NCBI GenBank assembly: GCA_035495775.1
Contig: DATJFG010000186.1
Span: forward strand, 13,791-77,790
From: Verrucomicrobiia bacterium
GTDB taxonomy: Bacteria > Desulfobacterota > Binatia > UBA9968
Reading direction: 5' to 3'
Length of the DNA stretch: 64,000 nucleotides
Shown piece after piece: positions 2,736 to 55,140 of this stretch. Below the pieces are notes generated by a model. The model ran no database searches. It saw only the letters and a list, made by a program, of their open reading frames with translations, and was not told the origin of the DNA. The translations under genes and the position numbers were made by a program. Numbering within the stretch: position 1 is the stretch's first letter; each line of letters opens with the position of its first letter.

Positions 2736-3142
2736 TCCGCCAGAGCGTTTTGTAAAATCGCATTCAGCTCGGGCGTTATCTTGACGAGCTTACCCGCGCC
2801 GTCGAGACAGGCGTGCCGAGTCCACCCCTCGACCAGCAATACCCCGTCGTTCTGGCGCAGGATCTTGTAACCGAAAACCAGCGTAGCGCGCCCGAGCGCC
2901 TGGAGAATCGTCTCGACGGCGATCTCGTCGTCGAATCGCGCCGAGCGCAAGTACCGGCAGGAGACCTCGGTGACGGGGAAAAAAAGGCCGCGCTTTTCGA
3001 CCGCCGTATAGGGGGCGCCGATCTGTCTTAACAGCTCGGTCCTACCCATCTCGAACCATCTCAAATAGTTGGCGTAGTAAACGACGCCCATTTGATCGGT
3101 GTCGCCGTAAATCACGCGGTAAGAGGAGACGTTTTTGGTCAT
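2732..3142 (-). CDS. acyl-CoA thioesterase, YbgC/4HBT hotdog family
   Basis: N-terminus YRVIYGDTDQMGVVYYANYLRWFEMGRTELLRQIG is the 4-hydroxybenzoyl-CoA thioesterase/YbgC signature. Convergent with queG; the stop codons overlap (TTAG). Confidence 0.85.
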   Translation of the reverse strand: MTKNVSSYRVIYGDTDQMGVVYYANYLRWFEMGRTELLRQIGAPYTAVEKRGLFFPVTEVSCRYLRSARFDDEIAVETILQALGRATLVFGYKILRQNDGVLLVEGWTRHACLDGAGKLVKITPELNAILQNALAD

Positions 3143-3252
3143 GTTCCGATGCCTGAATCGTCCCGAATATATCAGCAGCCGGCGCTTGACTGGAAGTGCC
3201 TGCGGGGTACAATCTTCGCAGTTTCGAGGTGATAGGGAAGGGAGGATGGAAG

Positions 3253-5679: not shown

Positions 5680-5774
5680 TGGCGGAGAAGGGAGGGAGTC
5701 GAACCCTCCGGGAACCTTACGATTCCCAGACTGGTTTTGAAGACCAGCGAAGCCACCGGGCCTCTTCCTTCTCC
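5680..5774 (-). tRNA. selC: tRNA-Sec (anticodon UCA), selC
   Basis: Folded by hand from the reverse complement: 8-bp acceptor GGAGAAGG/CCTTCTCC, discriminator G and encoded CCA. 6-bp D stem GAGGCC/GGCTTC with 4-nt loop, 6-bp anticodon stem GCTGGT/ACCAGT with loop CT-TCA-AA. 21-nt variable arm and 5-bp T stem GAGGG/CCCTC with loop TTCGACT. This is the 8/5 bacterial tRNA-Sec geometry, 95 nt. Confidence 0.85.
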
Positions 5775-9580: not shown

Positions 9581-9771
9581 ATTGATTAGAGCCGGCGCTC
9601 ATAGCGCGCCGCTGATGATATCCGTTGCGAGTTAAAAACAGACGCAGCCCGCGGGTTGGCATGGGCCCGAAGCGCGCTAAGCGGCGCGCCCGAAGCAAAA
9701 AGGTTCAGCGCGGCCGCTGCAATTTGCCCGAGCGGCGATCCATTCGGTGAAGGGGGCGGAGGTGATTGGGG

Positions 9772-11766
9772 ATGCGATCGGATCCTTCTCGAAAGCTCGG
9801 TATCGGTACGCGGCTGGATAGGCGACGATCGAACGCCCAGTCGATCCGCAATTGGAAGAAAACTTTAGCGAGTCTCCGCGGCGCAGTCGGCGCAAAGCTT
9901 CCAGCCTTCATCCCTCCCGAGCTCACGACCCTCGTCGATGATGTACCTGCCGGCGACGCGTGGCTCCACGAGATCAAGTTCGACGGCTACCGCGCGCTTT
10001 GCCGTTTGAAGGAAGGCAAAGCGCAGTTCTTCACGCGTGAAGGCAACGATTGGAGCGCGCGATTCGCCGCACTCGCCGAGCCCGCCGCCGCACTCGCGGT
10101 CCGTGAGGCCTTTCTCGACGGTGAAGTCGTCGCTTTAGAAAAAAACGGCGCGAGCAATTTTCAACGCCTGCAAGAAGCGCTCAGCGCTGGCGAAGGCGCC
10201 CGGCTGGTCTACTATGTTTTCGACCTGCTTTACCTCGACGGCTACGATTTAAGAGAGGTCCCGCTCCACAGTCGCAAAGGCCTCCTGGCGGACTTATTGA
10301 AACATCGGGGGAAAAGCGGCCGGCTCCGCTACAGCGATCATGTCATCGGCCACGCGGAAGAATTCTTCCGGCGCGCCCGTGACACGGGCCTCGAAGGCAT
10401 CGTCTCCAAACGCAAAGAGTCGCCATACCGTGCCGGCCGCGCACGCGACTGGCTCAAGATCAAATGCCACGCGAGTCAGGAGTTTGTCCTCGGCGGCTTT
10501 ACCGAACCTTCAGGCTCGCGCATCGGTCTTGGCGCCCTGCTTCTCGGCCACAACAATGACCGGCACGAATTAATTTATGCCGGTAAGGTCGGCACGGGAT
10601 TCAATAGCCGCTCGCTAACCGACCTCCGGAGGCGGCTGGAAAAAATCGAAACGGCGAAGCCGCCGTTTGCCAATCCTCCCCGGCTGCCGCGGCGCGAAGG
10701 GGTTCACTGGATAGAACCTCGGTACGCCGCAGAGATCGAGTTCACCGGCTGGACGCGCGACGGCTTGCTGCGCCATCCTTCATTTAAAGGTCTGCGCGAA
10801 GACAAGCCGCCAGCAAAGATCTCCCGCGAGCGCCCGGAACCGGTTCCCGAAAACCCGGCTCCGCGACGCTCAACCGATACAGCGGTCGCCGGCGTGGCGC
10901 TGAGCAATCCGGAACGCGTCCTCTATGCCGAGCAAGGCATCACGAAGATCGAGCTGGCGCGGTACTATGAAGAAATCAGCGACTGGATTCTGCCGCACAT
11001 TTCGCTGCGCCCGCTGACGATGGTCCGCTGTCCCGAGGGTTACCGGAAATGTTTTTATCAAAAACATGTCGAAGAGAATCTGCCGCCCTCGTTTAAGCGG
11101 ATCTTCGTCAAGGAAAAACGCGCCTCCGGAAGATACGTCATGATCGATTCGCTTCCCGGCCTCATTTCTTTAGTGCAGATGGGGGTGCTGGAAATCCACA
11201 CTTGGGGCTCTCGCGCCGAGCATGTGGAGCAGCCCGACCAGTTAATCTTCGATTTAGATCCTGACGCCGGACTGCCCTGGAATCGCGTCGTGGAAGCGGC
11301 GCGGCGACTGCGCGTCCGCCTCCGTGAGCTCGGGCTCGAGTCGTTCGTCAAAACCACCGGCGGCAAGGGGCTCCACGTCGTCGTTCCGATCGTTCCGGAG
11401 GAACGATGGGATGCGGTCAAGGAGTTTACCAAACAAGTCGCGGAGAGCATCGCGCGCGAAGCCCCTGAGTCCTATCTGACGAAGATGTCCAAAGCGAAGC
11501 GCGCTGGCAAGATATTCATCGATTATCTACGCAATGGCCGCGGCGCGACCGCGGTCGCGGCCTATTCCACGCGGGCGCGCTCCGGCGCTCCGGTTTCAGT
11601 CCCGCTCCGCTGGGAAGAACTCGCCGACGGTGTCCGCCCCGATCAATACAACGTGCGCAACATCCGCCGGCGCTTAACGGCCCTCCGTAAGGACCCATGG
11701 CACGATTTCGCCGCAGCCCGGCGGTCGATTCGGAACGCGATGCGCCGCGTTAGAGAGGTGGCATAA
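9772..11766 (+). CDS. ligD: ATP-dependent DNA ligase LigD, two-domain form (ligase + polymerase/primase, no phosphoesterase domain)
   Basis: Start set to ATG 9772 (GGAGG 7 nt upstream). Adenylation motif LHEIKFDGYR. C-terminal LigD Pol pattern (LSNPERVLYAEQGITKIELARYYEEISDWILPHISLRPLTMVRCPEG..FYQKH). The length leaves no room for a PE domain. Confidence 0.9.
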   Translation: MRSDPSRKLGIGTRLDRRRSNAQSIRNWKKTLASLRGAVGAKLPAFIPPELTTLVDDVPAGDAWLHEIKFDGYRALCRLKEGKAQFFTREGNDWSARFAALAEPAAALAVREAFLDGEVVALEKNGASNFQRLQEALSAGEGARLVYYVFDLLYLDGYDLREVPLHSRKGLLADLLKHRGKSGRLRYSDHVIGHAEEFFRRARDTGLEGIVSKRKESPYRAGRARDWLKIKCHASQEFVLGGFTEPSGSRIGLGALLLGHNNDRHELIYAGKVGTGFNSRSLTDLRRRLEKIETAKPPFANPPRLPRREGVHWIEPRYAAEIEFTGWTRDGLLRHPSFKGLREDKPPAKISRERPEPVPENPAPRRSTDTAVAGVALSNPERVLYAEQGITKIELARYYEEISDWILPHISLRPLTMVRCPEGYRKCFYQKHVEENLPPSFKRIFVKEKRASGRYVMIDSLPGLISLVQMGVLEIHTWGSRAEHVEQPDQLIFDLDPDAGLPWNRVVEAARRLRVRLRELGLESFVKTTGGKGLHVVVPIVPEERWDAVKEFTKQVAESIAREAPESYLTKMSKAKRAGKIFIDYLRNGRGATAVAAYSTRARSGAPVSVPLRWEELADGVRPDQYNVRNIRRRLTALRKDPWHDFAAARRSIRNAMRRVREVA

Positions 11767-14443: not shown

Positions 14444-15325
14444 ATGGCGCGGAAAGCCGCACACGCCTTGCGGCACAGAAGACGGGCGCGAAGAGCGGCC
14501 GGCTCGCGTCCGATCTGGAAGGGCAGCTTAAGCTTCGGTCTCGTCAATATACCCGTTTCGCTGCATCCCGCCGAGACCTCGAACGATCTTGGCTTTAAAC
14601 TGCTCGATCGTCGCGACCTGTCGCCGGTTCACTATCAGCGAGTGAACGAAAAGACAGGAAAGGAAGTGCCGTGGGACGAAGTCGTTAAAGGCTACCAATA
14701 TGAAAAAGGCGAATACGTGCCGATGAGCGAGACGGATTTCGAGCGCGCCAACACGGAGGCGACGCAGACCATCGAGATCACCGATTTTGTCGACGCGGCG
14801 GAGATCGCTCCGGTCTACTACGATAAGCCTTATTACTTGGCGCCGGCGAAGAATGCCGCCAAGAGCTACGCGTTATTGCGTGAGACGATACGCAAAACGA
14901 AAACCGTCGGCATCGCGCGGGTCGTTATTCGCTCGCGGCAGCACCTGGCGGCGGTTCTGCCGCGAGACTCCGCTCTTGTTTTGAATATTCTTCGCTTTGC
15001 GCACGAGATCCGCGACCCTGAGAACCTAGAAATTCCGGAGAACATCTCGATCGGTGAAAAAGAGCTCAAGATGGCCGAGCGGCTTGTCGAGACGATGGTC
15101 GGCAAGTGGCAGCCGGAGAAGTACCGCGATGAGTATCGCGAAGACCTGCTGGCTCTGATCGAGCGCAAGGTGAAGGCGGGCAAGACCAAAGTGATCGATG
15201 AAGCGCCTCCCCGCGAGCCGCGGCGGACGGCAAAAGTCATCGATATCATGGATCTGCTCAAGCGCAGCGTCGAGCAGGCGGGGCATCGAGAGGAGGCCCC
15301 GCGGCGGCGGCGCAAGACGGGATAA
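14444..15325 (+). CDS. ku: NHEJ DNA end-binding protein Ku
   Basis: IWKGSLSFGLVNIPVSLHPA and YYDKPYYLAP are hallmark bacterial Ku motifs. Basic C-terminal tail. The true start may lie a few codons downstream. Confidence 0.9.
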   Translation: MARKAAHALRHRRRARRAAGSRPIWKGSLSFGLVNIPVSLHPAETSNDLGFKLLDRRDLSPVHYQRVNEKTGKEVPWDEVVKGYQYEKGEYVPMSETDFERANTEATQTIEITDFVDAAEIAPVYYDKPYYLAPAKNAAKSYALLRETIRKTKTVGIARVVIRSRQHLAAVLPRDSALVLNILRFAHEIRDPENLEIPENISIGEKELKMAERLVETMVGKWQPEKYRDEYREDLLALIERKVKAGKTKVIDEAPPREPRRTAKVIDIMDLLKRSVEQAGHREEAPRRRRKTG

Positions 15326-15344
15326 AAGTCCAAAGGAGGTGTTT

Positions 15345-16070
15345 ATGAACTCACTGACCGCAATGGTGACAGGCGCCGGGTTGGGCTGTCTCGCCATGTA
15401 CGGCCTCGATCCGGAGATGGGGCGCAGGCGCCGCGCTCTAGCGCGCGACAAGATGATCAAAATTCAGCGCAAAGCCGGCGACGCGGCGGCATTCACGGCG
15501 CGGGATTTAAAAAACCGCACGCTCGGCACATTCGCCGAGGGAAAATCGCTGCTCGCCGAGGGGGAGATTTCCGACGAGGCGCTTGCGGAGCGCGTCCGCG
15601 CCGAGCTCGGCTTTCTCGTCCGCTACCCGTCCTTCATCGATGTTCAGGTTCACAGCGGCGAGGTGATACTCACCGGCGACGCTTTCAGCGACGAATGTGG
15701 GCAGTTGATCACAGGGATTCTATCGCTTCGCGGCGTCCGCTGCGCGGACAATCGCCTGCGGACCCATGAAAGCACCGAAGATTTTCCCAGTCTTCAGGGG
15801 CAGCCACTGAAACCGAAACCGACAGGCCGGCCGTTCGATATCATGCAGCGGCATTGGTCTCCTGCCACGCGCCTGCTGGTCAGCCTCGCGACACTCGGCG
15901 GGCTCGGCGCCTTGGCCTATTCGTTTGCGGGAGGCAACGGCTATTCGCGGCGTCGTTCGCATGGAATAAGAGGCAGGTTCCGGTCGCAGGGATCGCGTGC
16001 AATGAGCAGCATATGGCCGCATAAGTCGCATGGCGTAATCGAAAAAATCCGCGAGGAACTCCGTCTATGA
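15345..16070 (+). CDS. BON-domain protein
   Basis: Start moved to ATG 15345 (AAAGGAGG upstream). N-terminal helix plus BON pattern (LAERVRAELGFLVRYPSFIDVQVHSGEVILTGDAFS..ILSLRGVRCADNRL). Stop overlaps the next start (ATGA). Confidence 0.7.
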   Translation: MNSLTAMVTGAGLGCLAMYGLDPEMGRRRRALARDKMIKIQRKAGDAAAFTARDLKNRTLGTFAEGKSLLAEGEISDEALAERVRAELGFLVRYPSFIDVQVHSGEVILTGDAFSDECGQLITGILSLRGVRCADNRLRTHESTEDFPSLQGQPLKPKPTGRPFDIMQRHWSPATRLLVSLATLGGLGALAYSFAGGNGYSRRRSHGIRGRFRSQGSRAMSSIWPHKSHGVIEKIREELRL

Positions 16071-17815
16071 GCTTTACCGCCGCAGACGTATTAATCGACG
16101 CCCTCTGCGACTGGGGCGTCAGCGTTATTTTCGGCCTCCCCGGCGACGGGATCAATGGCGTCATGGAGGCGCTGCGCAAGCGGCAGGGAAAAATTCGCTT
16201 CATCCAAGTGCGTCATGAAGAGGCAGCGGCGTTCATGGCATGCGGTTACGCGAAATACACCGGCAAGCTCGGCGTCTGCCTGGGAACTTCCGGTCCCGGC
16301 GGTATACACCTGCTGAATGGCCTGTATGACGCCAAGCTCGACGGACAACCTGTCCTGGCGATCACCGGGCATCATTATCACGATCTCATCGACACGCATG
16401 CGCAGCAGGATGTCGACCTCGACAAGGTCTTCATGGATGTCGCCACTTACAACGCCAGGATCATGGGGCCATCTCACGTCGAGCAGGTGGTGAACCTCGC
16501 GTGCCGCACGGCGGTCGGACAGCGCGGCGTCGCCCATATCAATTTCCCCGTCGATCTTCAGGAGCATGAGATCGAAGAGCATTCCAAGCGTAACATCCCG
16601 GGGCATACTTCGAGAATACCGGCAACGGGGGTGGAGTTGCCCGTCGAGCTCGATCTCAAGACCGCCGCCGCCGTGCTGAACGAAGGACAAAGGGTCGCCA
16701 TACTCGCCGGACAGGGCGCGCTCGCCGCCGGCGGCGAGTTGGAGGAAGTCGCGGAAAAATTGGCGGCGCCGATCATCAAGGCATTGCTCGGCAAAGCCGC
16801 GGTTCCAGACGACAGCCCGTATACGACCGGCTCGATCGGCCTGCTCGGCACGAAGCCATCGCAACAGGCGATGGAGGAATGCGATACGCTCCTCATTGTC
16901 GGAAGCTCGTTTCCATACATCGAGTTCCTTCCCCAGCCCGGACAGGCGCGCGGCGTTCAGATCGATATGGACCCGACGCGGATCGGCCTCCGCTATCCGG
17001 TCGAAATCGGTCTGGTCGGCGACAGCCGCATGACGCTCAAAAAGCTCATTCCGCTGCTCGAGCGCAAAGCAGACCGCGGCTTTTTACAAAAGGCGCAGGC
17101 AGGGATGAACGATTGGTGGAAATTGATCGAGGACCAAGGTACGCGGCCTGACAAGCCGATGAAGCCGGAGGTCGTAGCGTGGGAACTAGGTAATCGGCTG
17201 GCCGAAAACGCGATCGTTTCCTGCGATTCAGGAACCGTGGCGACTTGGTTCGCGCGCCATATCCGCGCGCGACGGGGACAAAAGTTTTCTCTCTCCGGCA
17301 CGCTCGCGACGATGGCGAACGGTCTGCCCTACACGATCGCGGCGCAGATCGCGTATCCCGAAAGGCAATGCGTCGCGTTCGTCGGCGACGGCGGCTTTTC
17401 GATGCTGATGGCGGAGTTCGCCACGGCCGTCAAATACCGGCTGCCGATCAAGGTCGTGATCGTTAAGAACAACAGCCTGGGGCAGATCAAGTGGGAGCAG
17501 ATGGTCTTTTTAGGCAACCCGGAGTACGGCTGCGAGCTGCATCCGATCGACTTCGCCGCGTTCGCCCGCGCTTGCGGCGGCACGGGTTTTACCATCGAGG
17601 ATCCCGCCGAGTGCGGCCGCACCATCTCGGAAGCGCTCGCGACCGAAGGTCCGGTCATTGTGGAAGCCGTCGTCGACCCGTTTGAGCCGCCAATGCCGGC
17701 GAAAGTCACGCTCGAGCAGGCGGCGAAGTTCGCAAGATCGCTCGCACGAGGCGAGCCCGATCGGTCGAAGATCGCATGGACCGTCCTGTCGGATAAGGTC
17801 CGCGAGTTAATTTGA
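16067..17815 (+). CDS. thiamine-diphosphate enzyme, pyruvate oxidase / pyruvate:quinone oxidoreductase (PoxB)-like
   Basis: IFGLPGDGINGVMEAL, VRHEEAAAFMACGYAK and GTSGPGGIHLLNGLYDA parallel E. coli PoxB (GVTGDSLNG.., RHEEVAAFAAGA.., GPGNLHLINGLFD). TPP-binding GDGGFSML...NN motif. Confidence 0.8.
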   Translation: MSFTAADVLIDALCDWGVSVIFGLPGDGINGVMEALRKRQGKIRFIQVRHEEAAAFMACGYAKYTGKLGVCLGTSGPGGIHLLNGLYDAKLDGQPVLAITGHHYHDLIDTHAQQDVDLDKVFMDVATYNARIMGPSHVEQVVNLACRTAVGQRGVAHINFPVDLQEHEIEEHSKRNIPGHTSRIPATGVELPVELDLKTAAAVLNEGQRVAILAGQGALAAGGELEEVAEKLAAPIIKALLGKAAVPDDSPYTTGSIGLLGTKPSQQAMEECDTLLIVGSSFPYIEFLPQPGQARGVQIDMDPTRIGLRYPVEIGLVGDSRMTLKKLIPLLERKADRGFLQKAQAGMNDWWKLIEDQGTRPDKPMKPEVVAWELGNRLAENAIVSCDSGTVATWFARHIRARRGQKFSLSGTLATMANGLPYTIAAQIAYPERQCVAFVGDGGFSMLMAEFATAVKYRLPIKVVIVKNNSLGQIKWEQMVFLGNPEYGCELHPIDFAAFARACGGTGFTIEDPAECGRTISEALATEGPVIVEAVVDPFEPPMPAKVTLEQAAKFARSLARGEPDRSKIAWTVLSDKVRELI

Positions 17816-17824
17816 GGCGACGGC

Positions 17825-18520
17825 ATGGGGCAAATAATCGCGCGCGACGAGGTCCAGCGAATGACGGCGGAAGGCGCTGCGCTGATCGAAGTGCTGCCGC
17901 AAAAGGAGTACGAGCGCGTGCATCTCCCGGGTGCCGTGAACCTGCCGCTCGCCGATTTATACCCGTTTTCGGCCCCGCTCGCCGATAAAGACCGCCGCAT
18001 CGTGCTTTACTGCTATGACTTTCAGTGAGACATGAGCCGCAGGGCCGCGGCGCGGCTCCAGCGCATGAGATTCCGTCATGTTTTTGCCTACGCGCCCGGC
18101 AAAGTCGATTGGATGGCGCACGGCCTTCCCGTCGAGCGCGGCCCGGACATCCCGCCGGTAATCGGTGATTTCGTCATCTGCGATGTGCCCCGCTGTCATC
18201 CGGACGATCTCATCGGCGCGGCGCGCGACGCGGCCTATGAAATGGGGGTCGATATGTGTCCGGTCGTCGACGAAGAAAACATCCTGCTCGGCCTTTGCAC
18301 GCGCACATCGCTACACGCGCATCCGTCGATCGCTGTTCACCTCGTGATGGAGCCCGGCCCTCTCACGGTTCGACCGAGCGTCTCGGTCGAAGAGGGGCTA
18401 AAAAAACTCGAACGGAAGAAAAACCCGTTTTTGCTCGTGACGACGCCCGAGGGGAGGCTGATCGGCTACTTTAACCGTAGACTGGCGGCGGCCGGCAACG
18501 GAACCGGTCGCTCCACCTGA
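17825..18520 (+). CDS. candidate selenoprotein: single-domain rhodanese fused to a CBS pair, in-frame UGA at codon 68 (18026-18028)
   Basis: Track ORFs 17825-18028 and 18032-18520 share one frame and are separated only by TGA-GAC. The rhodanese fold runs across the TGA (..DRRIVLYCYDFQ-U-DMSRRAAARLQRMRFRHVFAYAPGKVDWMAHGLPVE). selC lies 12 kb upstream and a hairpin follows the TGA. Confidence 0.6.
18034..18058 (+). promoter_or_regulatory. candidate SECIS-like hairpin directly after the in-frame UGA
   Basis: GAGCCGC (18034-18040) pairs perfectly with GCGGCTC (18052-18058). The 11-nt loop AGGGCCGCGGC is G-rich. The stem starts 6 nt after the UGA. Alternative register: GCCGC/GCGGC with loop AGGGCC. 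Confidence 0.4.
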
Positions 18521-18539: not shown

Positions 18540-19328
18540 ATGAAGAACAGAAGCGGGGAGCCCGTGCGCATAGCGGCGATGGGGGATCTCCATTACACGA
18601 AGACCTCGCACGGCAGACTGCAGCCGATCTTCGCCCAGGCGACCGACAGCGCGGACATACTTTTGTTGTGCGGCGATATGGTCGATTATGGTCTGCCCGA
18701 GGAGACCGAGATCCTCGTCAAAGAGCTGTCGGTGGTGAAGATTCCCATCCTTGCAGTGTTCGGCAACCACGAATCGGAATCGGGAAAACAGGACGAGGTG
18801 CAGCGGATTCTCGCCGGCGCGGGCGTGACGATCCTCGACGGCACCGCGTGTGAAGTTCTCGGCGTGGGCTTTGCGGGCGTCAAAGGCTTTGCCGGCGGCT
18901 TCGGCCAGCATTCGCTTCAGCCTTGGGGCGAGCCGGCGATCAAAAAATTCGTCCAGGAGGCGATCGACGAGTCGTTGAAGCTTGAGTCGGCGCTGGCGAA
19001 GCTCAGAACTCCACATCGCATCGCCGTGCTGCATTACTCGCCGATCCAGGCGACGGTCGAGGGCGAGCCGGCGCCGATCTATCCCTTCCTAGGGTCGAGC
19101 CGCCTCGAGGAGCCGCTCAATCGCTATCCAGTCACGGCAGTTTTTCACGGCCACGCTCATCAGGGGAGTCCCGAAGGGCGCACTCAGACCGGCGTGCCGG
19201 TCTACAATGTAGCGATCAAAGTGCTTAGAAAAAATTTTCCGGACCGACCGCTTTTTCGCCTTATCGAGATTCCGGCGGCGGCGCGCGTCGACGAGGGCAA
19301 CGGCATTGGACGGGAGGTGGCGACGTGA
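18540..19328 (+). CDS. calcineurin-like metallophosphoesterase
   Basis: Motifs GDLH, GDMVDYG, GNHE and ..HGH.. in canonical order. Confidence 0.85.
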   Translation: MKNRSGEPVRIAAMGDLHYTKTSHGRLQPIFAQATDSADILLLCGDMVDYGLPEETEILVKELSVVKIPILAVFGNHESESGKQDEVQRILAGAGVTILDGTACEVLGVGFAGVKGFAGGFGQHSLQPWGEPAIKKFVQEAIDESLKLESALAKLRTPHRIAVLHYSPIQATVEGEPAPIYPFLGSSRLEEPLNRYPVTAVFHGHAHQGSPEGRTQTGVPVYNVAIKVLRKNFPDRPLFRLIEIPAAARVDEGNGIGREVAT

Positions 19329-20140
19329 AGGCGACGGATGCGGAAGAAGCCGGCGAGAACGGCGACAAGATAGGCAACGGATTTTATTATCGCGTGCTGA
19401 TAGCGATGAATGAAGCGAAGGTGCCGTTCATGATCGGCGGGGCCTTTGCGCTGCACCGATATACGGGAATCTACCGCGACACCAAGGATCTCGACCTTTT
19501 TGTCCATCCCGATGATTGCGAGCGCGCCTTGCGCGCGCTGGCGGCCGCCGGTTGCCATACGGAGCTCACGTTTCCGCACTGGCTCGGCAAGGCGTATTGC
19601 GGCGAGTATTTCGCCGATCTGATCTTCAGTTCCGGTAACGGCACCGCCCGGGTCGACGATCTTTGGTTCCGGCATGCCGCCGACGCCGAACTGCTCGGGC
19701 TGCCGGTGAAGCTCTGTCCTGTGGAAGAGACGATCTGGTCGAAGTCCTTCGTCATGGAGCGCGAGCGCTACGACGGCGCGGACGTCGCGCATCTGCTGCG
19801 CGCTTACGGCGAGAAGCTCGACTGGCGCCGGCTGCTGTGGCGCTTCGGCCGGCACTGGCGGGTGCTTTACAGTTACATCGTGCTCTTCGGCTTTATTTAT
19901 CCGTCGCATCGCGCATCGATTCCCGCTTGGGTCGTGCGCGACCTTTCTCGGAAAACGGAAGCCGAAGCGGAGACGGATGCCGCCGAAGCCGTGTGCCAGG
20001 GTACGCTCCTTTCGCGCGAGCAGTTCCTGATCGACATCCAGCAATGGGGCTACCACGATTCTCGCCTCGTCCCTGAAGGCAACATGACGGCGGCGCAAAC
20101 CCGTCATTGGACGAGGGCGATCAATGGCGATAAAAAATAG
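19325..20140 (+). CDS. nucleotidyltransferase-fold protein (tentative), unknown function
   Basis: GTG start overlapping the upstream stop (GTGA). IGGAFALHRYTGIYRDTKDLDLFV resembles the G-x-A...R.T.D.D pattern of minimal nucleotidyltransferases. Confidence 0.5.
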   Translation: MKATDAEEAGENGDKIGNGFYYRVLIAMNEAKVPFMIGGAFALHRYTGIYRDTKDLDLFVHPDDCERALRALAAAGCHTELTFPHWLGKAYCGEYFADLIFSSGNGTARVDDLWFRHAADAELLGLPVKLCPVEETIWSKSFVMERERYDGADVAHLLRAYGEKLDWRRLLWRFGRHWRVLYSYIVLFGFIYPSHRASIPAWVVRDLSRKTEAEAETDAAEAVCQGTLLSREQFLIDIQQWGYHDSRLVPEGNMTAAQTRHWTRAINGDKK

Positions 20141-20174: not shown

Positions 20175-21446
20175 ATGCCGCACCGCGTAGTCATCATCGG
20201 CGGCGGCTTCGGCGGTCTCCATGCCGCGCAGTCGTTGAGGGACGCGCCGGTCCAAGTGACGCTCGTCGACCGGCGGAACTTCCATCTCTTCCAGCCGCTG
20301 CTTTATCAAGTCGCCACCGGCTGGCTCTCCCCAGCCAATATCGCCTCGACCCTGCGGTCGGTGCTCCGGCGGCAGAAAAATACCCGCGTGCTGCTGGGTG
20401 ACGTGATCGACATCGACGTCGATCGCCGGCAGGCGATTTTGACCGACAGTGTCATTCCGTACGACAGCCTCATTGTCGCGGCCGGCTCGCATCATCATTA
20501 TTTCGGCAACGACCATTGGGAGGCGCTCGCGCCCGGACTGAAAACCGTCGAGGACGCGACCGAAATACGCCGGCGCATTTTTTTAGCGTTCGAGGCCGCC
20601 GAGCGCGAGCCGGATGAGGCGACCCGGCGCGCCTATTTGACCTTTGTCATCGTCGGCGGCGGGCCGACGGGTGTCGAGCTCGCCGGAGCGCTGGCGGAGA
20701 TCGCGCGCGACACATTGAAAAATGATTTTCGCAATATCGAGCCGGCCTCGGCGTGCATCATGCTGCTCGAAGCGGGCGAGCGGATTTTACCGCCTTATCC
20801 CGTCGAGCTCTCGGCGAAGGCCGAAGCGTTTCTTCGTCGCGCCGGCGTAAAGATCGAGGTGGGCGCGACGGTGACCGATATCCGCCGCGATGGGGTCGCG
20901 ATTCGACGCGGCGATGCGGTCCAGCAGATTCCCTGCCGTACGGCGATCTGGGCAGCCGGCGTCAAGGCGTCGTTTCTCGGAAAAATTCTCGCCCAGGCGA
21001 CCGACGCAAAATTGGATCGCGGCGGCCGTGTCATCGTCGAGCCGGACTTGTCGCTCGCCAACCATCCGGAGATCTTCGTCATCGGGGATCTCGCGAACTA
21101 TTCACACCAGACGGGCAAACCGCTGCCGGGATTGGCGCCGGTCGCGATGCAGCAGGGAGAATACGTGGCCAAGGTCTTGGCGAGCCGCTTACAAGGAAAA
21201 TCGCTGCCCGCGTTCCGCTACCATGACCGCGGCAGCATGGCGATCATCGGCCGCGGGACGGCGGTCGCCGATCTCGGCAAGTTAAAGCTCGCAGGCTTTT
21301 TCGCCTGGCTCGCATGGCTCTTTGTCCATTTAATTCAGATCGTCGAGTTCGAAAATCGCGTCCTCGTGCTGGTCCAGTGGGGATGGTATTACTTCAGCCG
21401 CAACCGCGCGGCGCGCTTGATCACCGGCGAACACCGCATGCCGTGA
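20175..21446 (+). CDS. ndh: type II NADH:quinone oxidoreductase (NDH-2)
   Basis: HRVVIIGGGFGGL and FVIVGGGPTGVELAG dinucleotide folds, VIGDLA motif, C-terminal membrane-anchoring helices. Confidence 0.9.
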   Translation: MPHRVVIIGGGFGGLHAAQSLRDAPVQVTLVDRRNFHLFQPLLYQVATGWLSPANIASTLRSVLRRQKNTRVLLGDVIDIDVDRRQAILTDSVIPYDSLIVAAGSHHHYFGNDHWEALAPGLKTVEDATEIRRRIFLAFEAAEREPDEATRRAYLTFVIVGGGPTGVELAGALAEIARDTLKNDFRNIEPASACIMLLEAGERILPPYPVELSAKAEAFLRRAGVKIEVGATVTDIRRDGVAIRRGDAVQQIPCRTAIWAAGVKASFLGKILAQATDAKLDRGGRVIVEPDLSLANHPEIFVIGDLANYSHQTGKPLPGLAPVAMQQGEYVAKVLASRLQGKSLPAFRYHDRGSMAIIGRGTAVADLGKLKLAGFFAWLAWLFVHLIQIVEFENRVLVLVQWGWYYFSRNRAARLITGEHRMP

Positions 21447-26160: not shown

Positions 26161-27222
26161 TTATCGGGCCAACTGCCGTGGGACGGCGTGAGGTTGCAGA
26201 TGACTTTCCGAGTTTTCTGCAATCGAGGCATCTGCGGCGTTGTCTTGTGCCGGCTCGTAGGCATTAACGAAATAGAGCGGTCTTTGTTTGCTCTCGTCGA
26301 ACATCCTGCCGATGTACTCCCCCATGATCCCGACGGTAATCAACTGAACGCCGCCGAGAAACAAGATGACGACCATAAGAGACGGGTATCCGGCGACAGG
26401 ATCGCCGTAGAGCAGTGTTTTGGCAATGACGATTCCGGCATAAATAAATGCGATAACGGCTGTGACAAGCCCCAGATAGGTCGCCATTTTGAGTGGACCG
26501 ATCGTGAACGATGTGATGCCTTCGAGTGCGAAGTTCCACAAGTTCCAGTAATTCCATTTCGTCGTGCCGGCGTAGCGCGAGTCGCGGTGATAGGGAATAC
26601 CTTTTTGTGGATAGCCGATCCAAGTGAACAAGCCCTTCATGAACCGATGCTGCTCCCTGAGCTTACCGAGCGCGTTAACGGCGCGGCGGCTGAGCAAACG
26701 ATAATCACCTGTATCCGCCGGGATCTTTACCCGGCTGATTTGATTGATCACGCGATAAAAGATGTAGGCCGTCGCTTTTTTGAATCTGCTCTCGCCTTCG
26801 CGCGACATGCGAGTCGCGTAGACGACGTCATATCCGTTTTTCCACTCCTTAATGAACTGCGGGATCAACTCCGGAGGGTCCTGTAGATCGGCATCGATAA
26901 GGACGACGGCGGCTCCCTTGCTATGGTCGAGACCCGCTGTGACGGCGATTTCTTTGCCGAAATTTCGGCTAAGATCAACAATCGCAATCCGCGGATCGCT
27001 TGCCCGAAGCCTCCTCAGCACCGCGAGCGTACCGTCCCGGCTGCCATCATTGACGTAGATAACCTCTACAGTTTCATTAATGCTCGCTAGGACCGCACTC
27101 AGCCGTTTATGGAACTGGGGCAGTACGTCTTGCTCGTTGTAAGCGGGAACGATAATGGAAAACTCAACCGCGGCGGCTGTGTTTGATTCCACGGTGGTGC
27201 AATCAACCGTTTCTGACGGCAT
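26161..27222 (-). CDS. GT2 polyprenyl-phosphate glycosyltransferase (GtrB/ArnC/DPM1-like)
   Basis: FSIIVPAYNEQ..VIYVNDGSRDGT..IDADLQDPPELIPQFIKEW..GYDVVYATR plus two C-terminal TM helices, the standard architecture of this family. Confidence 0.85.
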   Translation of the reverse strand: MPSETVDCTTVESNTAAAVEFSIIVPAYNEQDVLPQFHKRLSAVLASINETVEVIYVNDGSRDGTLAVLRRLRASDPRIAIVDLSRNFGKEIAVTAGLDHSKGAAVVLIDADLQDPPELIPQFIKEWKNGYDVVYATRMSREGESRFKKATAYIFYRVINQISRVKIPADTGDYRLLSRRAVNALGKLREQHRFMKGLFTWIGYPQKGIPYHRDSRYAGTTKWNYWNLWNFALEGITSFTIGPLKMATYLGLVTAVIAFIYAGIVIAKTLLYGDPVAGYPSLMVVILFLGGVQLITVGIMGEYIGRMFDESKQRPLYFVNAYEPAQDNAADASIAENSESHLQPHAVPRQLAR

Positions 27223-28819
27223 GTTGTTCCCCCCCGTTCTTGACCTTCACTCCCGGCTTGGCGATGAGGCTCAGAGTATCACCCGTGAGACCTAAAATCA
27301 TAGCCGTCGTCTTATGTTGCTCTATATTCTCTTTAAAATCGGACTCATCAATGATTCTTAGAGTGATGTCTTCGCGAGCATACGTCTTTTTAATGAAAGA
27401 TTCGCCGAACTCCAGCACCTTCAAACCCGGCATGAGGTAAACCGCGTATTCTGTCTGCTTCGTCGAGGGGTTTAGCAGAAGCAATTCACCCCGCGGGGGC
27501 ACTTCATCGATATAGGCACCGAGTTGTTGAATCAGCATTGCGGCCCGCTCGCCGTTCTTACGCATGAGCGAAGTCTTGTCCCGAATGGCTGCTATATGAC
27601 TGACGAACATAAGCACACAGCACGCCACAATGGCATGTTTAAGATAAGACCGCTTGGCCGCGTCTAGAATGGCACTCACTCCAATACCAACGAGAACGGA
27701 AAAAAACGGCATCAGATTATACACGTATAGCTCGCTGACGTGATTCAACAAAATCATGGGAAAAGCGGCGCCGATGAAACAAACCACCACCGCCGCTATC
27801 TTCAGGTCGCTTCGGCGAAGCCATAATCCATAGGTCACGGCAAACAGCAGAAGCATGGAGGCGCCGGCCGCCAACCCAACGATGACCGTTTCGCCTTTCT
27901 CAAAAGCCTCGAAGATTGTCACAGTGGATATCGGCACCGTGACGGCGAAGATATCCAGCAGGAAGTTGATAGGAAGATTTGATCCGATATGGAAATTGTA
28001 AACTCCCGAACCAGACGAAGGAGAGTTGGCACCGATGTGGGAATGGACGATGAGGTAGACGAAGAAGACGGCCGCGAAGGGTATTGATTCGGCAAAAACC
28101 TTTTTGATGAAACGAAATTTATTTTCGGCTTCGTAGTTCCGAAAAACCGTAGCACAAACGAGGATTGGGAAGAAAGAAGATGCGGCTTCCTTAGACAAAA
28201 GTGCCAGGGCGAACGCGACTATGCTGACAACATATGGAGTTATTTTCTTGACGCTTGCCGTCCTCTCTCTTCTCATCGTATTCCATTTGAGCAGCCCCCA
28301 AACACTGACACATCCAAAGAAGGTCGCTGCGACCTGGGAGAAGGTATCGACGCTTAGCAGCGCAAAGGCGCTCGCCTGGGACAACGCCATAAAGATCGCT
28401 GCCGAGAGTGCGGGAGTCAATGTATAGCCGAGTTCTGTCATCGATCTGAATATGAGGCAGCAAAGAAGCGCGTGTAACAGAAAGTTGAGGAGGTGAATGG
28501 GTACGGTATTGAGACCGAAGTTCTTTTGAATGATCGTATAAATGCTCGCCTGAAGCGGCCGATACCAGCCATCGGCATTCACCTGAACGAAATGGCGCAA
28601 TGGAGCCGTTGAGGCATCGATCCAGCCGAAATCGTCGCCGTAGTACTGAATGCCAACTCCCGGCAGATATATGCAAAAAACGAGCAGAGCGAGAACAACC
28701 AGTATGGCCGGCGTTGAAATATATCGCATCGGAGAACTGCTCACGAGGACGGCTTTCGAGCTTTGCGCATGACCTAAGCCGCTGGCGGTCAGAGATGAGT
28801 CAATCGTTGGTCTGAGCAT
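27203..28819 (-). CDS. GT-C-fold membrane glycosyltransferase (ArnT/PMT-like, tentative)
   Basis: Start moved to ATG 28819, 1 nt after the regulator stop. At least 12 predicted TM helices, an acidic motif YYGDDFGW in the first extracytoplasmic loop, a soluble C-terminal domain. Overlaps the downstream GtrB-like gene. Confidence 0.6.
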   Translation of the reverse strand: MLRPTIDSSLTASGLGHAQSSKAVLVSSSPMRYISTPAILVVLALLVFCIYLPGVGIQYYGDDFGWIDASTAPLRHFVQVNADGWYRPLQASIYTIIQKNFGLNTVPIHLLNFLLHALLCCLIFRSMTELGYTLTPALSAAIFMALSQASAFALLSVDTFSQVAATFFGCVSVWGLLKWNTMRRERTASVKKITPYVVSIVAFALALLSKEAASSFFPILVCATVFRNYEAENKFRFIKKVFAESIPFAAVFFVYLIVHSHIGANSPSSGSGVYNFHIGSNLPINFLLDIFAVTVPISTVTIFEAFEKGETVIVGLAAGASMLLLFAVTYGLWLRRSDLKIAAVVVCFIGAAFPMILLNHVSELYVYNLMPFFSVLVGIGVSAILDAAKRSYLKHAIVACCVLMFVSHIAAIRDKTSLMRKNGERAAMLIQQLGAYIDEVPPRGELLLLNPSTKQTEYAVYLMPGLKVLEFGESFIKKTYAREDITLRIIDESDFKENIEQHKTTAMILGLTGDTLSLIAKPGVKVKNGGEQHAVRNG

Positions 28820-28820
28820 A

Positions 28821-29714
28821 TTATCGAGCTTTGTTTTCGCCAACCGCTTGAGCCGGCGCCTCCGGTTTGGTTTCGAGCCAGTCTCGATCGACGTAGATGC
28901 GGCCGGGCTGCGGGCGATCTTGCTTGACTCGATCCCGTAAGGCGGCGTCCTGCTCCCGGATTAAATGGGGATTGATAAGTCCGCGGGTCAACGATTCGTA
29001 ATAAAGCCGCCCGCGGCTCTCCAAGAGCGCGCTAACACCCTGCGGCGCGTCGCGCCGGGTTGGAATCTTCATCTTCTGATAAAGCCCGGTCAACACTCGC
29101 TCGACGCTCTGGCGCGACGCGCTGACCAGCCAGGCGATGCCGTCATTCGTGACACCGAGGCAAATGTACAGAAGAACGGTAAACTCGAGATCACTGAGAT
29201 CTTTGGACGGCGAATTCTTGAGATTTTGGCTGAAGATGTCAGTGAACGAGAGCTCGTAGATGAAAACCTGCTCGACGGCGTTTTGCACGAGCCGCTTGGG
29301 CATCGCGCCTTTGTCGACAAAACCCCATACTTCCGGCTTGTGTTTTCCATCGTTGATGAGATTGCCGATTTGGTGCAGGTAGCTCGGATCGCCGGCATGG
29401 ACCGTACGAAAGAGAAGCCGTGTCTTGAAGTCTTCGTCCTCGGTCCTCGCCTCGAGAATCCGCCGCGCGATCTCGACGCCGGATACACGCGGCACGACGA
29501 AATCCAAGTCGAGTACGATATTTTCGATTTCTTCTTCCGCGGCCTTCGAGACCGCCTCGTCAGGAATCTGCGCCCGGTGGATCTCCGCATCGGGCCAGCG
29601 CTCGCGGATCCACGAACTCATCTGATCGATGGAATCCGGCGAATCATCGGCGATGAGGACCCTCAGGGGTTCTTTCCCGCCGTTATGATCTTTTTTCCGC
29701 GCTTTGGTGGCCAC
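28821..29714 (-). CDS. response regulator, receiver + LuxR/NarL-type HTH
   Basis: RVLIADDSPD...IVLDLDF receiver motifs. HTH LSDLEFTVLLYICLGVTNDGIAWLVSASRQSVERVLTGLYQKM. GTG start. Confidence 0.75.
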   Translation of the reverse strand: MATKARKKDHNGGKEPLRVLIADDSPDSIDQMSSWIRERWPDAEIHRAQIPDEAVSKAAEEEIENIVLDLDFVVPRVSGVEIARRILEARTEDEDFKTRLLFRTVHAGDPSYLHQIGNLINDGKHKPEVWGFVDKGAMPKRLVQNAVEQVFIYELSFTDIFSQNLKNSPSKDLSDLEFTVLLYICLGVTNDGIAWLVSASRQSVERVLTGLYQKMKIPTRRDAPQGVSALLESRGRLYYESLTRGLINPHLIREQDAALRDRVKQDRPQPGRIYVDRDWLETKPEAPAQAVGENKAR

Positions 29715-32066: not shown

Positions 32067-32148
32067 ACAAATATGTATCACATCAGCGCCGGCAAGGGCA
32101 CTCTGACGCCACGCCTAAGGACTCATCTGGATAGGAGTGCACACGATT

Positions 32149-34596
32149 ATGTTTTTTTCACGGGTGACTTTGCTGATTATTTCCGCGCTAAGCGTGATGA
32201 GCGTTCATATTGGTGTGGCCGCCGCGCAGTTTCCCGGCGGATTCATTACTAAAAGCTACGACGCGCCGAATCGACCGAGATTGACGCAGTCTCAGATCCA
32301 GAGCTTTCTGCCCGCGGGACGGGGAAAGTTCAACTTCCCGGCGCCCTACAATACCGAAGGGATCCGCATCACCATACCGACGGATTGCGGCGGCGCCGAC
32401 TGCGTGGACTACGTCGGATATTCCTATTGGAAGAACATGAACAACCATCAGAACAGCGACACGATGTACATCGTGTTGGGGTTGCATCGCGGCAGCGGCG
32501 GAGACGGCCCCACGCTGTTCGCTTACAATAAAGTTACCGATGTGGTGACCAAAGTCGGAGCGCTGTTCGATCCATCGACGAAATGGAGCTGGTCGGCGGG
32601 CAACGGCTTTTACTTCAGCGCGACGCTGCCGACCAAGCTCTACGTGAATTACTGGGGCGACTCCACGCTCTTTCGCTACGACGTTGTGGACCACAGCTTC
32701 CAACAGGTCCTCGACATCGCATCTCGGCCCGATATCTTCGGCTCGAATCGCAATATTACGCAATATCACTCGAGCGACGACGACAAGGTGCATTCGTTCA
32801 CTGTGCAGGACTCGAACTTCACGATGCTTGGCTGCGGGGTTTATCACGAGGATACCGGCAATTTTCAGTATTTTCCCAAAACCGGCGAATTTAACGAATG
32901 CAATCTCGACGCCAGCGGCCGTTGGCTCATGATTCTGGACGGCTCGGCCGATCTCGACAATTACGTCGTCGATCTACAAAACAACAACGAGAAGATCATC
33001 CTCAACCAGAACGGGCGCTTGGGCCATTTAGATATGGGCGATGGATATGCCATAGGCGATAGCGGGTCTGTGCCGCTACCCCAGGCCTCGCTTCTCTATA
33101 AATTTCCCCTCGCAACCACGACTTATCCCGTCGGGCCGACAGTCTTCTACAATGTCGATTGGTATACGAGCATCGTGAATCATGTGAGCCATCAGAACCG
33201 CAGGGTTGGCGTCGCGCCGGAGCAGCAATACGCTTGCGGTAGCAACCTGGACGGTGATCCTTCGCGTGAAAACGAGATCGCCTGCTTTCGTTTGGATACG
33301 AGCTATGACGCGTTGTTCGTCGCGCCGGTGATGACCGACATCAACGCGCCGGGCGGCGGCGACAGCTATGCCAAATATCCGAAGGGCAATATCGATATTA
33401 CCGGCCAGTATTTCTTGTGGACCAGCAACATGTACGGCAACCGCTTGGACGCGTTTATTGTCAAAGTGCCCTCGCAACTGCTAACCGGCTCTTCGCCCTC
33501 GACACCTCCGCCTTCATCAGGGCCAACGCCGCCGGTCATTAGTGGCGTATCCGCTCCTGTCGTTAGTTCGTCATCGGCGACAGTTGTCTGGACAACGAGC
33601 ACCAGCAGCGACTCGCAGGTGGAATATGGCACGACGACGGATTATGGAACCACAACCCCTTTGAACGGGAGCGCCGTCAAATCCCATCTGCAAGTTCTCG
33701 ACGCTCTCTCGGCCGGGACGATATATCACTATCGCGTTACATCGAAGGATTCGGCCGGTAATGCGGCGGTCTCCGGAGATTTCACCTTTGCCACGACCGA
33801 TTCGTCGGGCTCAGGTAGCGGAACGTCGGCCGTGTCCGTCGTCTCTCCGGCCTCGGGAGCTGCGGTCAAGGGGAAAGTAAAACTTTCGGCCAAGGCATCC
33901 GTCAGCGGCGTTATGCGACTGCAATTCCAAGTGGACGGCCGAAATGTCGGACCGGAGCGTCGTTCCGGCCGTTTTACCGTAACGTGGAATGCGGCGGCTG
34001 CGGTTCCCGGATTTCACGTTGTTACCGCAATCGCGCGTGACTCGGCAGGCAATACCAGCGTTTCGGCGCCAGTTATCGTCAGCGTCACTTCCGGCAAGGC
34101 CAGCTCCACGGGTCTGTTCACGCAGAACGTCGTATGGAGCAATGCTATCAATGTGACCGTCACGGGAAACTCAATCCAAAAAACCAGCGGTTGCGATGGC
34201 TGCGAAGACGCCGCCGCCGTGTCCTCGCAGCAATTCACAGGTAACGGTTATGTCGAATTCACCGCATCTGAAACGACGACGCAGCGCGCCATTGGTCTAA
34301 GCCGTGGGAATACGGGTACGATCCGGCAGGATATCGATTTCGCCATAATGCTATGGAATGTCAACGGCGGCGTTGTCGAAATCTATGAAAATGACATTTA
34401 CCGCGCTGGAACGGTGGGTTATACGCCCGGCGACGTCTTCCGCGTCGCCGTCGATCAGGGCATCGTCAAGTATTCGAAAAATGGCGTCGTTTTCTACACG
34501 AGCAGCAAGAAGCCAAGTTTCCCTCTGCTTGCGGATACATCGCTCTGGACTGCCGGCGCGACTCTCACAAATGCCGTAATTTCTAAGACACCCTAA
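32149..34596 (+). CDS. large secreted protein, paralogue A: unknown ~440-aa N-domain + Fn3 + Ig-like + ~170-aa C-terminal domain
   Basis: Start moved to ATG 32149 (AGGAGTG 8 nt upstream). Signal peptide ..HIGVAAA/QFPGGF. One Fn3-like module (VVSSSSATVVWTTSTSSDSQVEYGTTTDYG..YHYRVTSKDSAGN) and one Ig-like module (..VKGKVKLSAKAS..LQFQVDGRNVG..). Confidence 0.8.
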   Translation: MFFSRVTLLIISALSVMSVHIGVAAAQFPGGFITKSYDAPNRPRLTQSQIQSFLPAGRGKFNFPAPYNTEGIRITIPTDCGGADCVDYVGYSYWKNMNNHQNSDTMYIVLGLHRGSGGDGPTLFAYNKVTDVVTKVGALFDPSTKWSWSAGNGFYFSATLPTKLYVNYWGDSTLFRYDVVDHSFQQVLDIASRPDIFGSNRNITQYHSSDDDKVHSFTVQDSNFTMLGCGVYHEDTGNFQYFPKTGEFNECNLDASGRWLMILDGSADLDNYVVDLQNNNEKIILNQNGRLGHLDMGDGYAIGDSGSVPLPQASLLYKFPLATTTYPVGPTVFYNVDWYTSIVNHVSHQNRRVGVAPEQQYACGSNLDGDPSRENEIACFRLDTSYDALFVAPVMTDINAPGGGDSYAKYPKGNIDITGQYFLWTSNMYGNRLDAFIVKVPSQLLTGSSPSTPPPSSGPTPPVISGVSAPVVSSSSATVVWTTSTSSDSQVEYGTTTDYGTTTPLNGSAVKSHLQVLDALSAGTIYHYRVTSKDSAGNAAVSGDFTFATTDSSGSGSGTSAVSVVSPASGAAVKGKVKLSAKASVSGVMRLQFQVDGRNVGPERRSGRFTVTWNAAAAVPGFHVVTAIARDSAGNTSVSAPVIVSVTSGKASSTGLFTQNVVWSNAINVTVTGNSIQKTSGCDGCEDAAAVSSQQFTGNGYVEFTASETTTQRAIGLSRGNTGTIRQDIDFAIMLWNVNGGVVEIYENDIYRAGTVGYTPGDVFRVAVDQGIVKYSKNGVVFYTSSKKPSFPLLADTSLWTAGATLTNAVISKTP
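32224..33489 (+). repeat. copy 1 of a ~1.27-kb dispersed direct duplication (N-domain coding sequence)
   Basis: Collinear with 34878-36146 apart from one extra codon. Includes an 81-nt run identical in both copies (33061-33141 = 35718-35798). Confidence 0.9.
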
Positions 34597-49163: not shown

Positions 49164-49266
49164 GCGGATTCTTGTGATGACTGAGAAGATTTTGGGGCTC
49201 GACCGGGCGCGTTTGCCGGTCGCACTTATTGAAGCGCGGCGGCGGCGCAACCGATGCGGATCGCGA

Positions 49267-55100: not shown

Positions 55101-55140
55101 GATCGATTTCCGCTCCCGCGGGTCGAGGGTAATGACACCT

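Follow-up and report, generated by a model that had tools for sequence, protein, structure and literature searches.

Rhodanese-type selenoproteins have been known since 2005, and a review published in 2026 catalogues five forms of them (PMC13188914). Form 1 carries the motif UxxS (WP_010941598.1 of Geobacter sulfurreducens), where U is selenocysteine (Sec), and forms 2 and 4 carry UxxG; form 3 is characterized by CxU (NF041203, 'LYCAU') and form 5, TsoB, by UxxxxU (NF045694) (PMC13188914). A CBS domain, a C-x4-U motif, Binatia and Actinobacteria are not mentioned in this review of the five forms (PMC13188914). Here we analyzed a 64-kb stretch of contig DATJFG010000186.1 (the window; positions are counted from its first letter), in which a gene at 17825-18520 on the plus strand is predicted to encode a rhodanese domain followed by a pair of CBS domains, with an in-frame TGA at 18026-18028 that would be read as Sec.

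The protein predicted from the window was compared with each of the catalogued forms. Like all five, it has a rhodanese domain, a predicted Sec in or next to the active-site loop, and a UGA accompanied by a candidate bacterial selenocysteine insertion sequence (SECIS). Form 1 was compared by description only: the U-D-M-S string of the window protein fits UxxS, but the review gives form 1 neither an upstream Cys nor a CBS domain. In forms 2 and 4, judging from the portion of the GOS survey that was consulted, Sec occupies the canonical catalytic position itself (...TYUQGGIRAAH), whereas the window protein has Cys there and its predicted Sec at +5; the motif of the window family was not found among the rhodanese selenoprotein sequences in that portion. 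The form 3 model NF041203 gave the window protein 28.2 bits against a cutoff of 115, and the motif of the window protein is C-Y-D-F-Q-U, not C-x-U. TsoB, which was reportedly described by Haft and Tolstoy in 2025, is represented by a 572-position model of a rhodanese/DsbD fusion with two Sec residues. The window protein reached 31.5 bits with this model, whose cutoff is 805, and matched it in the rhodanese part only; it has no DsbD domain and a single predicted Sec. However, the U-x4-U spacing of TsoB is the same as the C-x4-U spacing of the window protein, and four relatives within the window family are themselves of the U-x4-U type. No work combining selenocysteine, 'CBS domain' and rhodanese was found in the literature searched, which agrees with the statement in a preliminary description of this DNA that a rhodanese-CBS Sec form was not known. 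As far as we can tell from these comparisons, the domain architecture is new, and so is the predicted position of Sec, which is common only to the second Sec of TsoB.

First, the reading frame was examined. An ATG-started open reading frame (ORF) of 67 amino acids at 17825-18028 is closed by TGA 18026-18028, and an ORF of 162 amino acids at 18032-18520 shares its frame; a single codon, GAC (Asp), lies between the TGA and the ATG at 18032. Translation in this one frame gave a complete predicted selenoprotein coding sequence of 231 codons including Sec68, which ends at the stop TGA 18518-18520. A Shine-Dalgarno-like GAGG, read from the sequence, may serve the first ATG (17814-17817, plus strand, 7 nt 5' of ATG 17825), but no such site was found in the sequence directly 5' of ATG 18032. 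The window contains 113 TGA junctions flanked on either side by 45 or more open codons. The GC content at third codon positions (GC3) exceeded 0.72 on both sides at only two of them, namely TGA 18026-18028 (0.76 and 0.74) and the TGA at 17813, an ordinary stop that ends the upstream gene.

Domain analysis was performed on the joined protein with U replaced by C. The Pfam rhodanese domain PF00581 matched residues 8-98 (17846-18118, plus strand) with 48.9 bits against a cutoff of 22.2 (E 9.7e-13, profile positions 3-101/102). Since this one match spans residues 8-98, the TGA cuts a single domain. The C-terminal half matched PF00571 with 41 bits against a cutoff of 24, which places a CBS pair (Bateman module) at about residues 117-219 (18173-18481, plus strand). 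The preliminary description had proposed two ORFs split by an in-frame TGA, a rhodanese fold divided between them and a CBS pair behind it, and on all three points the coordinates, the single-frame translation and the Pfam matches bear it out.

The TGA column was then followed across homologous loci. The tblastn set consisted of 80 species-representative genomes in which the match runs through the stop column (query residues about 1-218 or more). It covered metagenome-assembled genomes (MAGs) of Binatia, Udaeobacter, Eisenbacteria, Acidobacteria and 'delta proteobacterium', Actinomycetota/Actinomycetes including Solirubrobacterales, Thermoleophilaceae, Acidimicrobiia and Rubrobacter, and Chloroflexia/Chloroflexi, Anaerolineales and Thermomicrobiales. 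The data showed that the column of the predicted Sec68 codon (TGA 18026-18028, plus strand) is TGA in 72 of the 80 loci and TGT or TGC in the other 8. The arrangement was C-x4-TGA in 68 loci and TGA-x4-TGA in 4. The peptide was conserved on both sides of the TGA in all 72 TGA loci, and the roughly 62 residues upstream of the loop were conserved in frame back to the start codon in all loci checked.

Protein databases gave a corresponding picture. About 25 close relatives (59-83% identity) were all fragments of 133-165 amino acids, whose first residue is the Met directly behind the TGA column or the one that follows. Relatives of 222-229 amino acids and about 40% identity are uninterrupted, with Cys in place of the TGA (such as YCWDALCDMSPRAA and YCYDYQCDLS), so that the check for uninterrupted homologues with Cys at the U column, which had been proposed beforehand, gave a positive result in proteins as well as in the 8 genomic loci. 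An exhaustive profile search of 1.84 billion representative proteins, for which the Cys homologue P0022 and the window fragments served as input, returned 343 clusters at E <= 1e-30. About 67 of the best 150 clusters were fragments that begin with the Met just past the TGA column (profile position 70), which indicates that gene callers split this family systematically. The full-length representatives mostly had Cys at both loop positions, and dozens had Cys at the Sec column. Entries of Sec forms that come from NCBI are named 'CBS domain-containing protein' or 'hypothetical protein'. One protein, P0074, has Trp at the Sec column (YCSDSLWDMS); it is probably a hidden Sec form whose TGA was translated by a gene caller using a UGA=Trp code.

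We also analyzed the RNA downstream of the TGA. A core stem-loop at 18041-18059 (plus strand) has a 7-bp stem (GGGCCGC/GCGGCUC), the loop GGC and an energy of -11.7 kcal/mol, and its apical loop begins 20 nt after the TGA. The published model of the bacterial SECIS (bSECIS) allows 3-9 nt in the loop and 4-16 bp in the stem; it asks for G and then G or U as the first loop bases, for 16-37 nt between UGA and loop, and for an energy of <= -7.5 kcal/mol (PMC13188914). The hairpin of the window lies within all of these limits. The minimum free energy fold of 18026-18070 (-18 kcal/mol) also contains a possible extended lower stem at 18031-18067 on the plus strand (CAUG...CGC.GG-GCCGC GGC GCGGC-CC.GCG CAUG), but the lower stem is not conserved in the family and is weakly supported.

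The hairpin was compared among relatives with the T of the TGA as column 1, which places the stem at columns 16-23 pairing with 27-34 around a three-base loop. This register was fixed in every TGA-carrying sequence, with a stem of 6-8 bp and a loop G[G/U]N, which is G-U-G in most sequences and G-G-C in the window and Binatia-type relatives. Among 66 distinct TGA sequences, 93.6% of the stem cells were paired, in comparison with 24-55% when the 3' arm was slid by 1-3 columns. Pair 21-29 was C-G in 49 sequences, U-A in 11 and A-U in 6, and unpaired in none, with 17 double-sided changes. This pair joins the third base of an Ala codon to the second base of a codon for Arg, Gln or Leu, and its covariation is not explained by the peptide alone. 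Variation at pairs 17-33 and 18-32 was limited to Watson-Crick versus G-U. All six core pairs were intact in 73 of 73 TGA forms but in only 3 of 8 Cys forms (Fisher p = 2e-6), and in the Cys forms L024 and L046 the hairpin is broken while the peptide PRAAWRL is unchanged. In relatives of the U-x4-U type, 35 nt separate the first UGA from the loop; since this is still within the bSECIS spacing range, a single element could serve both UGAs.

The supply of a tRNA was examined as well. The minus strand carries a tRNA-Sec gene at 5680-5774, with the anticodon TCA, an 8-bp acceptor stem and an encoded CCA; it was detected by ARAGORN and by the Rfam model RF01852, where it scored 76.9 bits against a gathering score of 47. 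Rfam at gathering thresholds matched this tRNA-Sec alone, and no SECIS family was found. Among the 60 related loci that were scanned, none had a tRNA-Sec within 3 kb. Both RNA elements named in the preliminary description, the tRNA-Sec gene 12 kb upstream and the GC hairpin after the UGA, were thus recovered, and the SECIS check that it advised showed an element inside the bSECIS limits whose stem covaries in the family. From the sequence data taken together, we consider it very likely that 17825-18520 is one gene for a 231-residue selenoprotein whose TGA is read as Sec.

Next, the active-site loop was considered. The codon TGC at 18011-18013 (plus strand) encodes Cys63, which directly follows the central beta-strand I-V-L-Y and is predicted to hold the canonical catalytic position of rhodaneses. 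In HMMER alignments, I-V-L-Y-C63 aligns with the strand and the catalytic Cys of solved rhodaneses. P0022, the nearest full-length homologue with Cys, shares the Y-C-Y-D-x-Q-C-D loop and was modelled with AlphaFold. In this model the central strand occupies residues 59-62, Cys63 is next, and residue 68 directly precedes a helix that begins at 69. The preliminary description had left two registers open, one in which U68 heads a C-x4-R loop as the catalytic residue and one in which Cys63 is canonical and forms a C-x4-U pair with U68. The string U-D-M-S-R-R does hold an Arg at U+5 that is invariant in the family. However, under the first register the polar Y-D-F-Q would have to form the central strand and three residues would have to be deleted in the helix register, and this reading was rejected on the alignments and the P0022 model. 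The second register stood, and the data fit Cys63 as the predicted canonical position with Sec68 five residues on, where the active-site loop ends, in a predicted C-x4-U dyad.

The composition of the two loop columns in the 80 genomes was also determined. The first column was Cys in 75, Sec (TGA) in 4 and Ser in 1, and the second was Sec in 72 and Cys in 8. The four U-x4-U loops read Y-TGA-H-D-G-L-TGA-D-M-S and come from three Acidimicrobiia MAGs and one 'Acidobacteria' MAG (L048 about 155-175, L049 about 3142-3162, L063 about 2532-2552, L071 about 3190-3210). That these relatives carry Sec at both positions suggests that both positions matter. A third Cys, C124 (18194-18196), lies in a D-V-P-x-C string at the start of the first CBS motif and is near-invariant in Sec and Cys forms; it may act as an additional redox partner for the loop dyad.

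The fold of the two halves was examined with Foldseek. The P0022 model had a mean predicted local distance difference test score (pLDDT) of 87.8 and two beta-alpha-beta-beta-alpha units in its CBS half, which matched the CBS pairs of MgtE, AcuB and CBSX at E values of about 1e-9 to 1e-7. The CBS pairs of MgtE, AcuB, CBSX and IMPDH are likewise Bateman modules that bind adenine nucleotides, but they are attached to transporters or other enzymes and not to a rhodanese. The best match of the N-terminal half was BH2092 of Bacillus halodurans (PDB 3nhv; also 3o3w), with a target-normalised TM-score of about 0.7 and a root-mean-square deviation of 1.8 A. BH2092 is a single-domain rhodanese from structural genomics; it shares the C-x4-C spacing (YCWGPACNGATKAAA, loop YCWGPAC), but it has no CBS pair and no Sec, is only about 24% identical to the window protein and is uncharacterised. 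None of the solved entries in the Foldseek search spanned the rhodanese and CBS halves together.

The closest relatives in architecture are the Cys-form rhodanese-CBS homologues of 220-245 amino acids. They have the loop Y-C-x-D-x-x-C-D-[LM]-S-x-R-A-A and are 33-43% identical to the window protein over the full length. Examples are the entries P0037 of Sphaerimonospora cavernae and P0029 of Solirubrobacteraceae, both named 'rhodanese-like domain-containing protein' and both uncharacterised. They differ from the window protein in having Cys at residue 68, and the SECIS-type hairpin was not intact in 5 of the 8 genomic cases. For the chemistry of the loop, mammalian thioredoxin reductase offers a comparison, since its GCUG motif cycles through a Cys-Sec selenenylsulfide. 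The likeness, a reversible S-Se bond between a Cys and a Sec close in sequence, is a mechanistic analogy only and not homology: in thioredoxin reductase Cys and Sec are adjacent and not separated by four residues, the fold is unrelated, and the window protein has no flavin partner in its chain.

Several results weigh against the reading as a selenoprotein with a C-x4-U dyad. The hairpin overlaps the conserved peptide S-x-R-A-A-x-R-L, so that its conservation may be partly protein-driven, and double-sided covariation was seen at one pair only (21-29). For longer segments of the window sequence after the TGA, the fold energy was no better than that of shuffled sequences (z = 0.03 for 81 nt and z = -1.06 for 45 nt); because single-sequence energy is uninformative in a GC-rich coding region, the comparative analysis was used. 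Neither selA, selB nor selD was found by Pfam and NCBIfam among the roughly 40 larger ORFs of the 64-kb window, so the remaining Sec machinery has to be assumed. Residues 61-70, the loop of the P0022 model, had a mean pLDDT of 75, the lowest confidence in the rhodanese half. Some Cys-form homologues have Ser, Gly or Trp at one of the two loop residues, which means that the dyad is not universal. Finally, the gene neighbourhoods vary by clade, and no neighbour is common to the whole family.

A mechanism can be proposed. UGA 18026-18028 would be read as selenocysteine in translation, with the mRNA stem-loop 18041-18059 acting as a bacterial SECIS. By analogy with characterised bacterial systems, this element would be bound by SelB carrying Sec-tRNA(Sec), the tRNA being supplied by the gene at 5680-5774, 12 kb upstream. 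In selenoproteins the reactive centre is almost always the Sec, and for this reason we infer that the selenol is the primary reactive group and main nucleophile, with Cys63 as its partner. The loop may cycle through an intraloop Cys63-Sec68 selenenylsulfide; alternatively, its S and Se may keep a sulfane sulfur, selenium or soft-metal ion between them. The role of the CBS pair would be that of an adenine-nucleotide-type sensing module or a dimerisation module that tunes the activity of the loop. For the function of the protein, a redox or sulfur-transfer role is put forward tentatively, at rather less than even confidence, and a metal-handling role appears somewhat doubtful.

The alternative that survives best concerns this function: the C-x4-U loop may be mainly a high-affinity site for the binding and hand-over of Hg(II), soft metals or organometals in a mer-like detoxification, and not a catalytic sulfurtransferase or redox centre. 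The evidence for it comes from the neighbouring genes, which were counted in the 80 loci by tblastn with defined reference proteins. In Actinomycetota, a (seleno)protein of about 100 amino acids of the DF family (NF049942) was found directly upstream on the same strand in 21 loci; a MerR-family metal regulator in 17; an ArsR/SmtB regulator in 12; MerB, with the organomercurial lyase motifs C-A-W-D and F-C-H-K, in 9; and a cation diffusion facilitator (CDF) efflux gene in 1 (L050, downstream). Operons of this metal type are present at L050 (1527-4583) and L072 (2290-3639), and also at L043, L065, L079, L012, L044, L070 and others. All 15 of the DF-family neighbours checked had Cys, not TGA, at their F-D-G-C-P motif. 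In addition, several known selenoproteins have been linked to Hg or As handling (PMC13188914). The MerR/ArsR operons with MerB and the DF-family protein suggest a role in thiophilic-metal or organometal stress for the Actinomycetota clade. However, about 50 of the 80 loci have none of the metal genes within 3 kb, MerA, MerT and MerP were not seen near the loci, and the MerB and MerR scores were below the NCBIfam equivalog cutoffs. The clade of the window has a thiamine pyrophosphate (TPP)-dependent enzyme, a metallophosphoesterase and an NTP_transf_5-like protein as neighbours instead. On balance, a mainly metal-binding loop seems somewhat unlikely. Two neighbour groups that had appeared as 'BrkB' and 'MerB-like' proved false, because single-linkage clustering of stop-to-stop ORFs had merged MerB, DF-family and antisense ORFs.

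A genuine stop at the TGA would leave a 67-residue rhodanese fragment and a separate 162-residue CBS protein started at ATG 18032. The public gene calls do list products of 67 and 162 amino acids, many database entries are 'CBS domain-containing protein' of 150-165 amino acids, and in the window an ATG does stand one codon past the TGA. However, a rhodanese fold that ends after the catalytic loop would miss two core elements, and the ATG lacks the Shine-Dalgarno-like site that precedes the first ORF. The Asp codon after the TGA was invariant (66 of 66 sequences) and is Asp in the Cys forms too. Many relatives have Leu after U-D and hence no ATG there, and their called start lies about 11-16 residues later, inside conserved sequence. 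The alignment of the TGA column to Cys in uninterrupted homologues also speaks against a stop, and so does a covarying SECIS-type hairpin whose six core pairs are kept in all 73 TGA forms and broken in 5 of 8 Cys forms. Two separate products are very improbable on this evidence, and reading of the TGA as Sec is preferred.

An equally small chance is given to the recoding of UGA as a standard amino acid, either by an alternative code or by near-cognate read-through to Trp, Cys or Gly. The Trp printed at the column in P0074 is what a gene caller with UGA=Trp would produce, and near-cognate tRNAs are known to read through Sec codons in bacteria under selenium limitation. However, TGA is an ordinary stop elsewhere in the window, for example at the end of the TPP-enzyme gene (17813-17815), and to our knowledge the lineages that carry the family are not among the UGA-reassigned groups. 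Homologues have Cys at this position, as is usual for the counterpart of a Sec, and a tRNA-Sec gene and a SECIS-type element are both present.

A nonsense mutation or assembly error of TGC or TGT in a pseudogene, which the preliminary description had named as a threat to its proposal, is suggested by the single base that separates TGA from these codons and by the existence of Cys forms, but it is effectively refuted, since the exact pair of 67- and 162-residue products recurs in four independent metagenomes, the same column is TGA in 72 species-level genomes, and high GC3 and a conserved protein sequence are found in both halves.

We then analyzed the genes around the selenoprotein gene in the window. 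The TPP-dependent enzyme gene, of the PRK08273/pyruvate-oxidase type (16067-17815, plus strand; Pfam TPP_enzyme_N/M/C), ends 9 nt upstream. Its product scored 668.8 bits with NCBIfam NF006129, just below the cutoff of 724. The same neighbour lies directly upstream in 10 related loci of Binatia, Udaeobacter and 'delta proteobacterium' MAGs, and it is a probable operon partner. Downstream, Pfam identified a metallophosphoesterase (18540-19328, plus strand) and an NTP_transf_5-like protein (19325-20140, plus strand). This arrangement is kept in the loci L001-L005 and in a 35.8-kb JGI contig, and the two genes are probable operon partners in the clade of the window. The TGA stop of the TPP-enzyme gene lies in the frame of the selenoprotein ORF, three codons 5' of its ATG. 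A fusion of the two genes through this in-frame TGA 17813 was considered and rejected; the frame relation is lost in relatives such as L001 and is thus taken as a coincidence.

The remaining genes of the window were also surveyed. Upstream of the TPP/rhodanese-CBS operon lie genes for LigD (ligase and primase-polymerase), Ku and a BON-domain protein at 9766-11766, 14444-15325 and 15198-16070, respectively, which form a non-homologous end-joining, stress-type neighbourhood. A flavin- and NAD(P)-dependent (FAD/NAD(P)) pyridine nucleotide-disulfide oxidoreductase is encoded at 20175-21446 on the plus strand, 1.6 kb downstream of the selenoprotein gene. Its best NCBIfam match was TIGR03169, 'Nterm_to_SelD', at 94 bits against a cutoff of 310, and it matched weakly to the selenoprotein subtype of type III sulfide:quinone reductase (SQR); it may be merely a generic relative of type II NADH dehydrogenase (NDH-2) and SQR. 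From about 21 to 64 kb (21500-64000), the window contains a large polysaccharide biosynthesis cluster with GlmS, a sugar epimerase, several GT2 and GT4 glycosyltransferases, two asparagine-synthase paralogues, three GNAT proteins (Acetyltransf_6), a heparinase II/III-like protein, MBOAT, a polysaccharide deacetylase, a carbamoyltransferase and a flippase-like gene. No family match was found for the ORFs of 550-820 amino acids at 27203-28843, 32137-34596, 47451-49250 and 53673-55484.

The findings bear on the family as a whole. It is large, dominated by Sec and systematically mis-annotated, and it extends a known category of selenoproteins without opening a new one. Hundreds of database entries of the family are mis-annotated, many of them as fragments named 'CBS domain-containing protein', and recognition of the Sec would restore the two-domain protein. 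A predicted selenoprotein is also added to lineages for which few have been recorded, namely Solirubrobacterales, Thermoleophilia, Acidimicrobiia, Binatia and Udaeobacter. In the rhodanese loop the predicted Sec lies at +5 relative to the catalytic Cys, which is not the canonical site, and the finding that 90% of the sampled species have it in place of Cys points to strong selection for selenium chemistry there. The Sec, Cys and U-x4-U forms are natural variants for comparison, and models of SECIS elements gain a useful example in the compact, conserved element with its clean covariation. A concrete and testable functional hypothesis comes from the mer-type operons of Actinomycetota. In its broadest version, an uncatalogued, Sec-dominated rhodanese-CBS family of soil and subsurface Actinomycetota, Chloroflexota, Binatia and neighbouring lineages, split in every public annotation, would handle mercury, soft metals or organometals together with MerB and the DF-family protein under MerR/ArsR control. 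This full picture is unlikely as it stands, but if true it would add to metal detoxification a new branch that depends on selenium, in soil bacteria that are largely aerobic.

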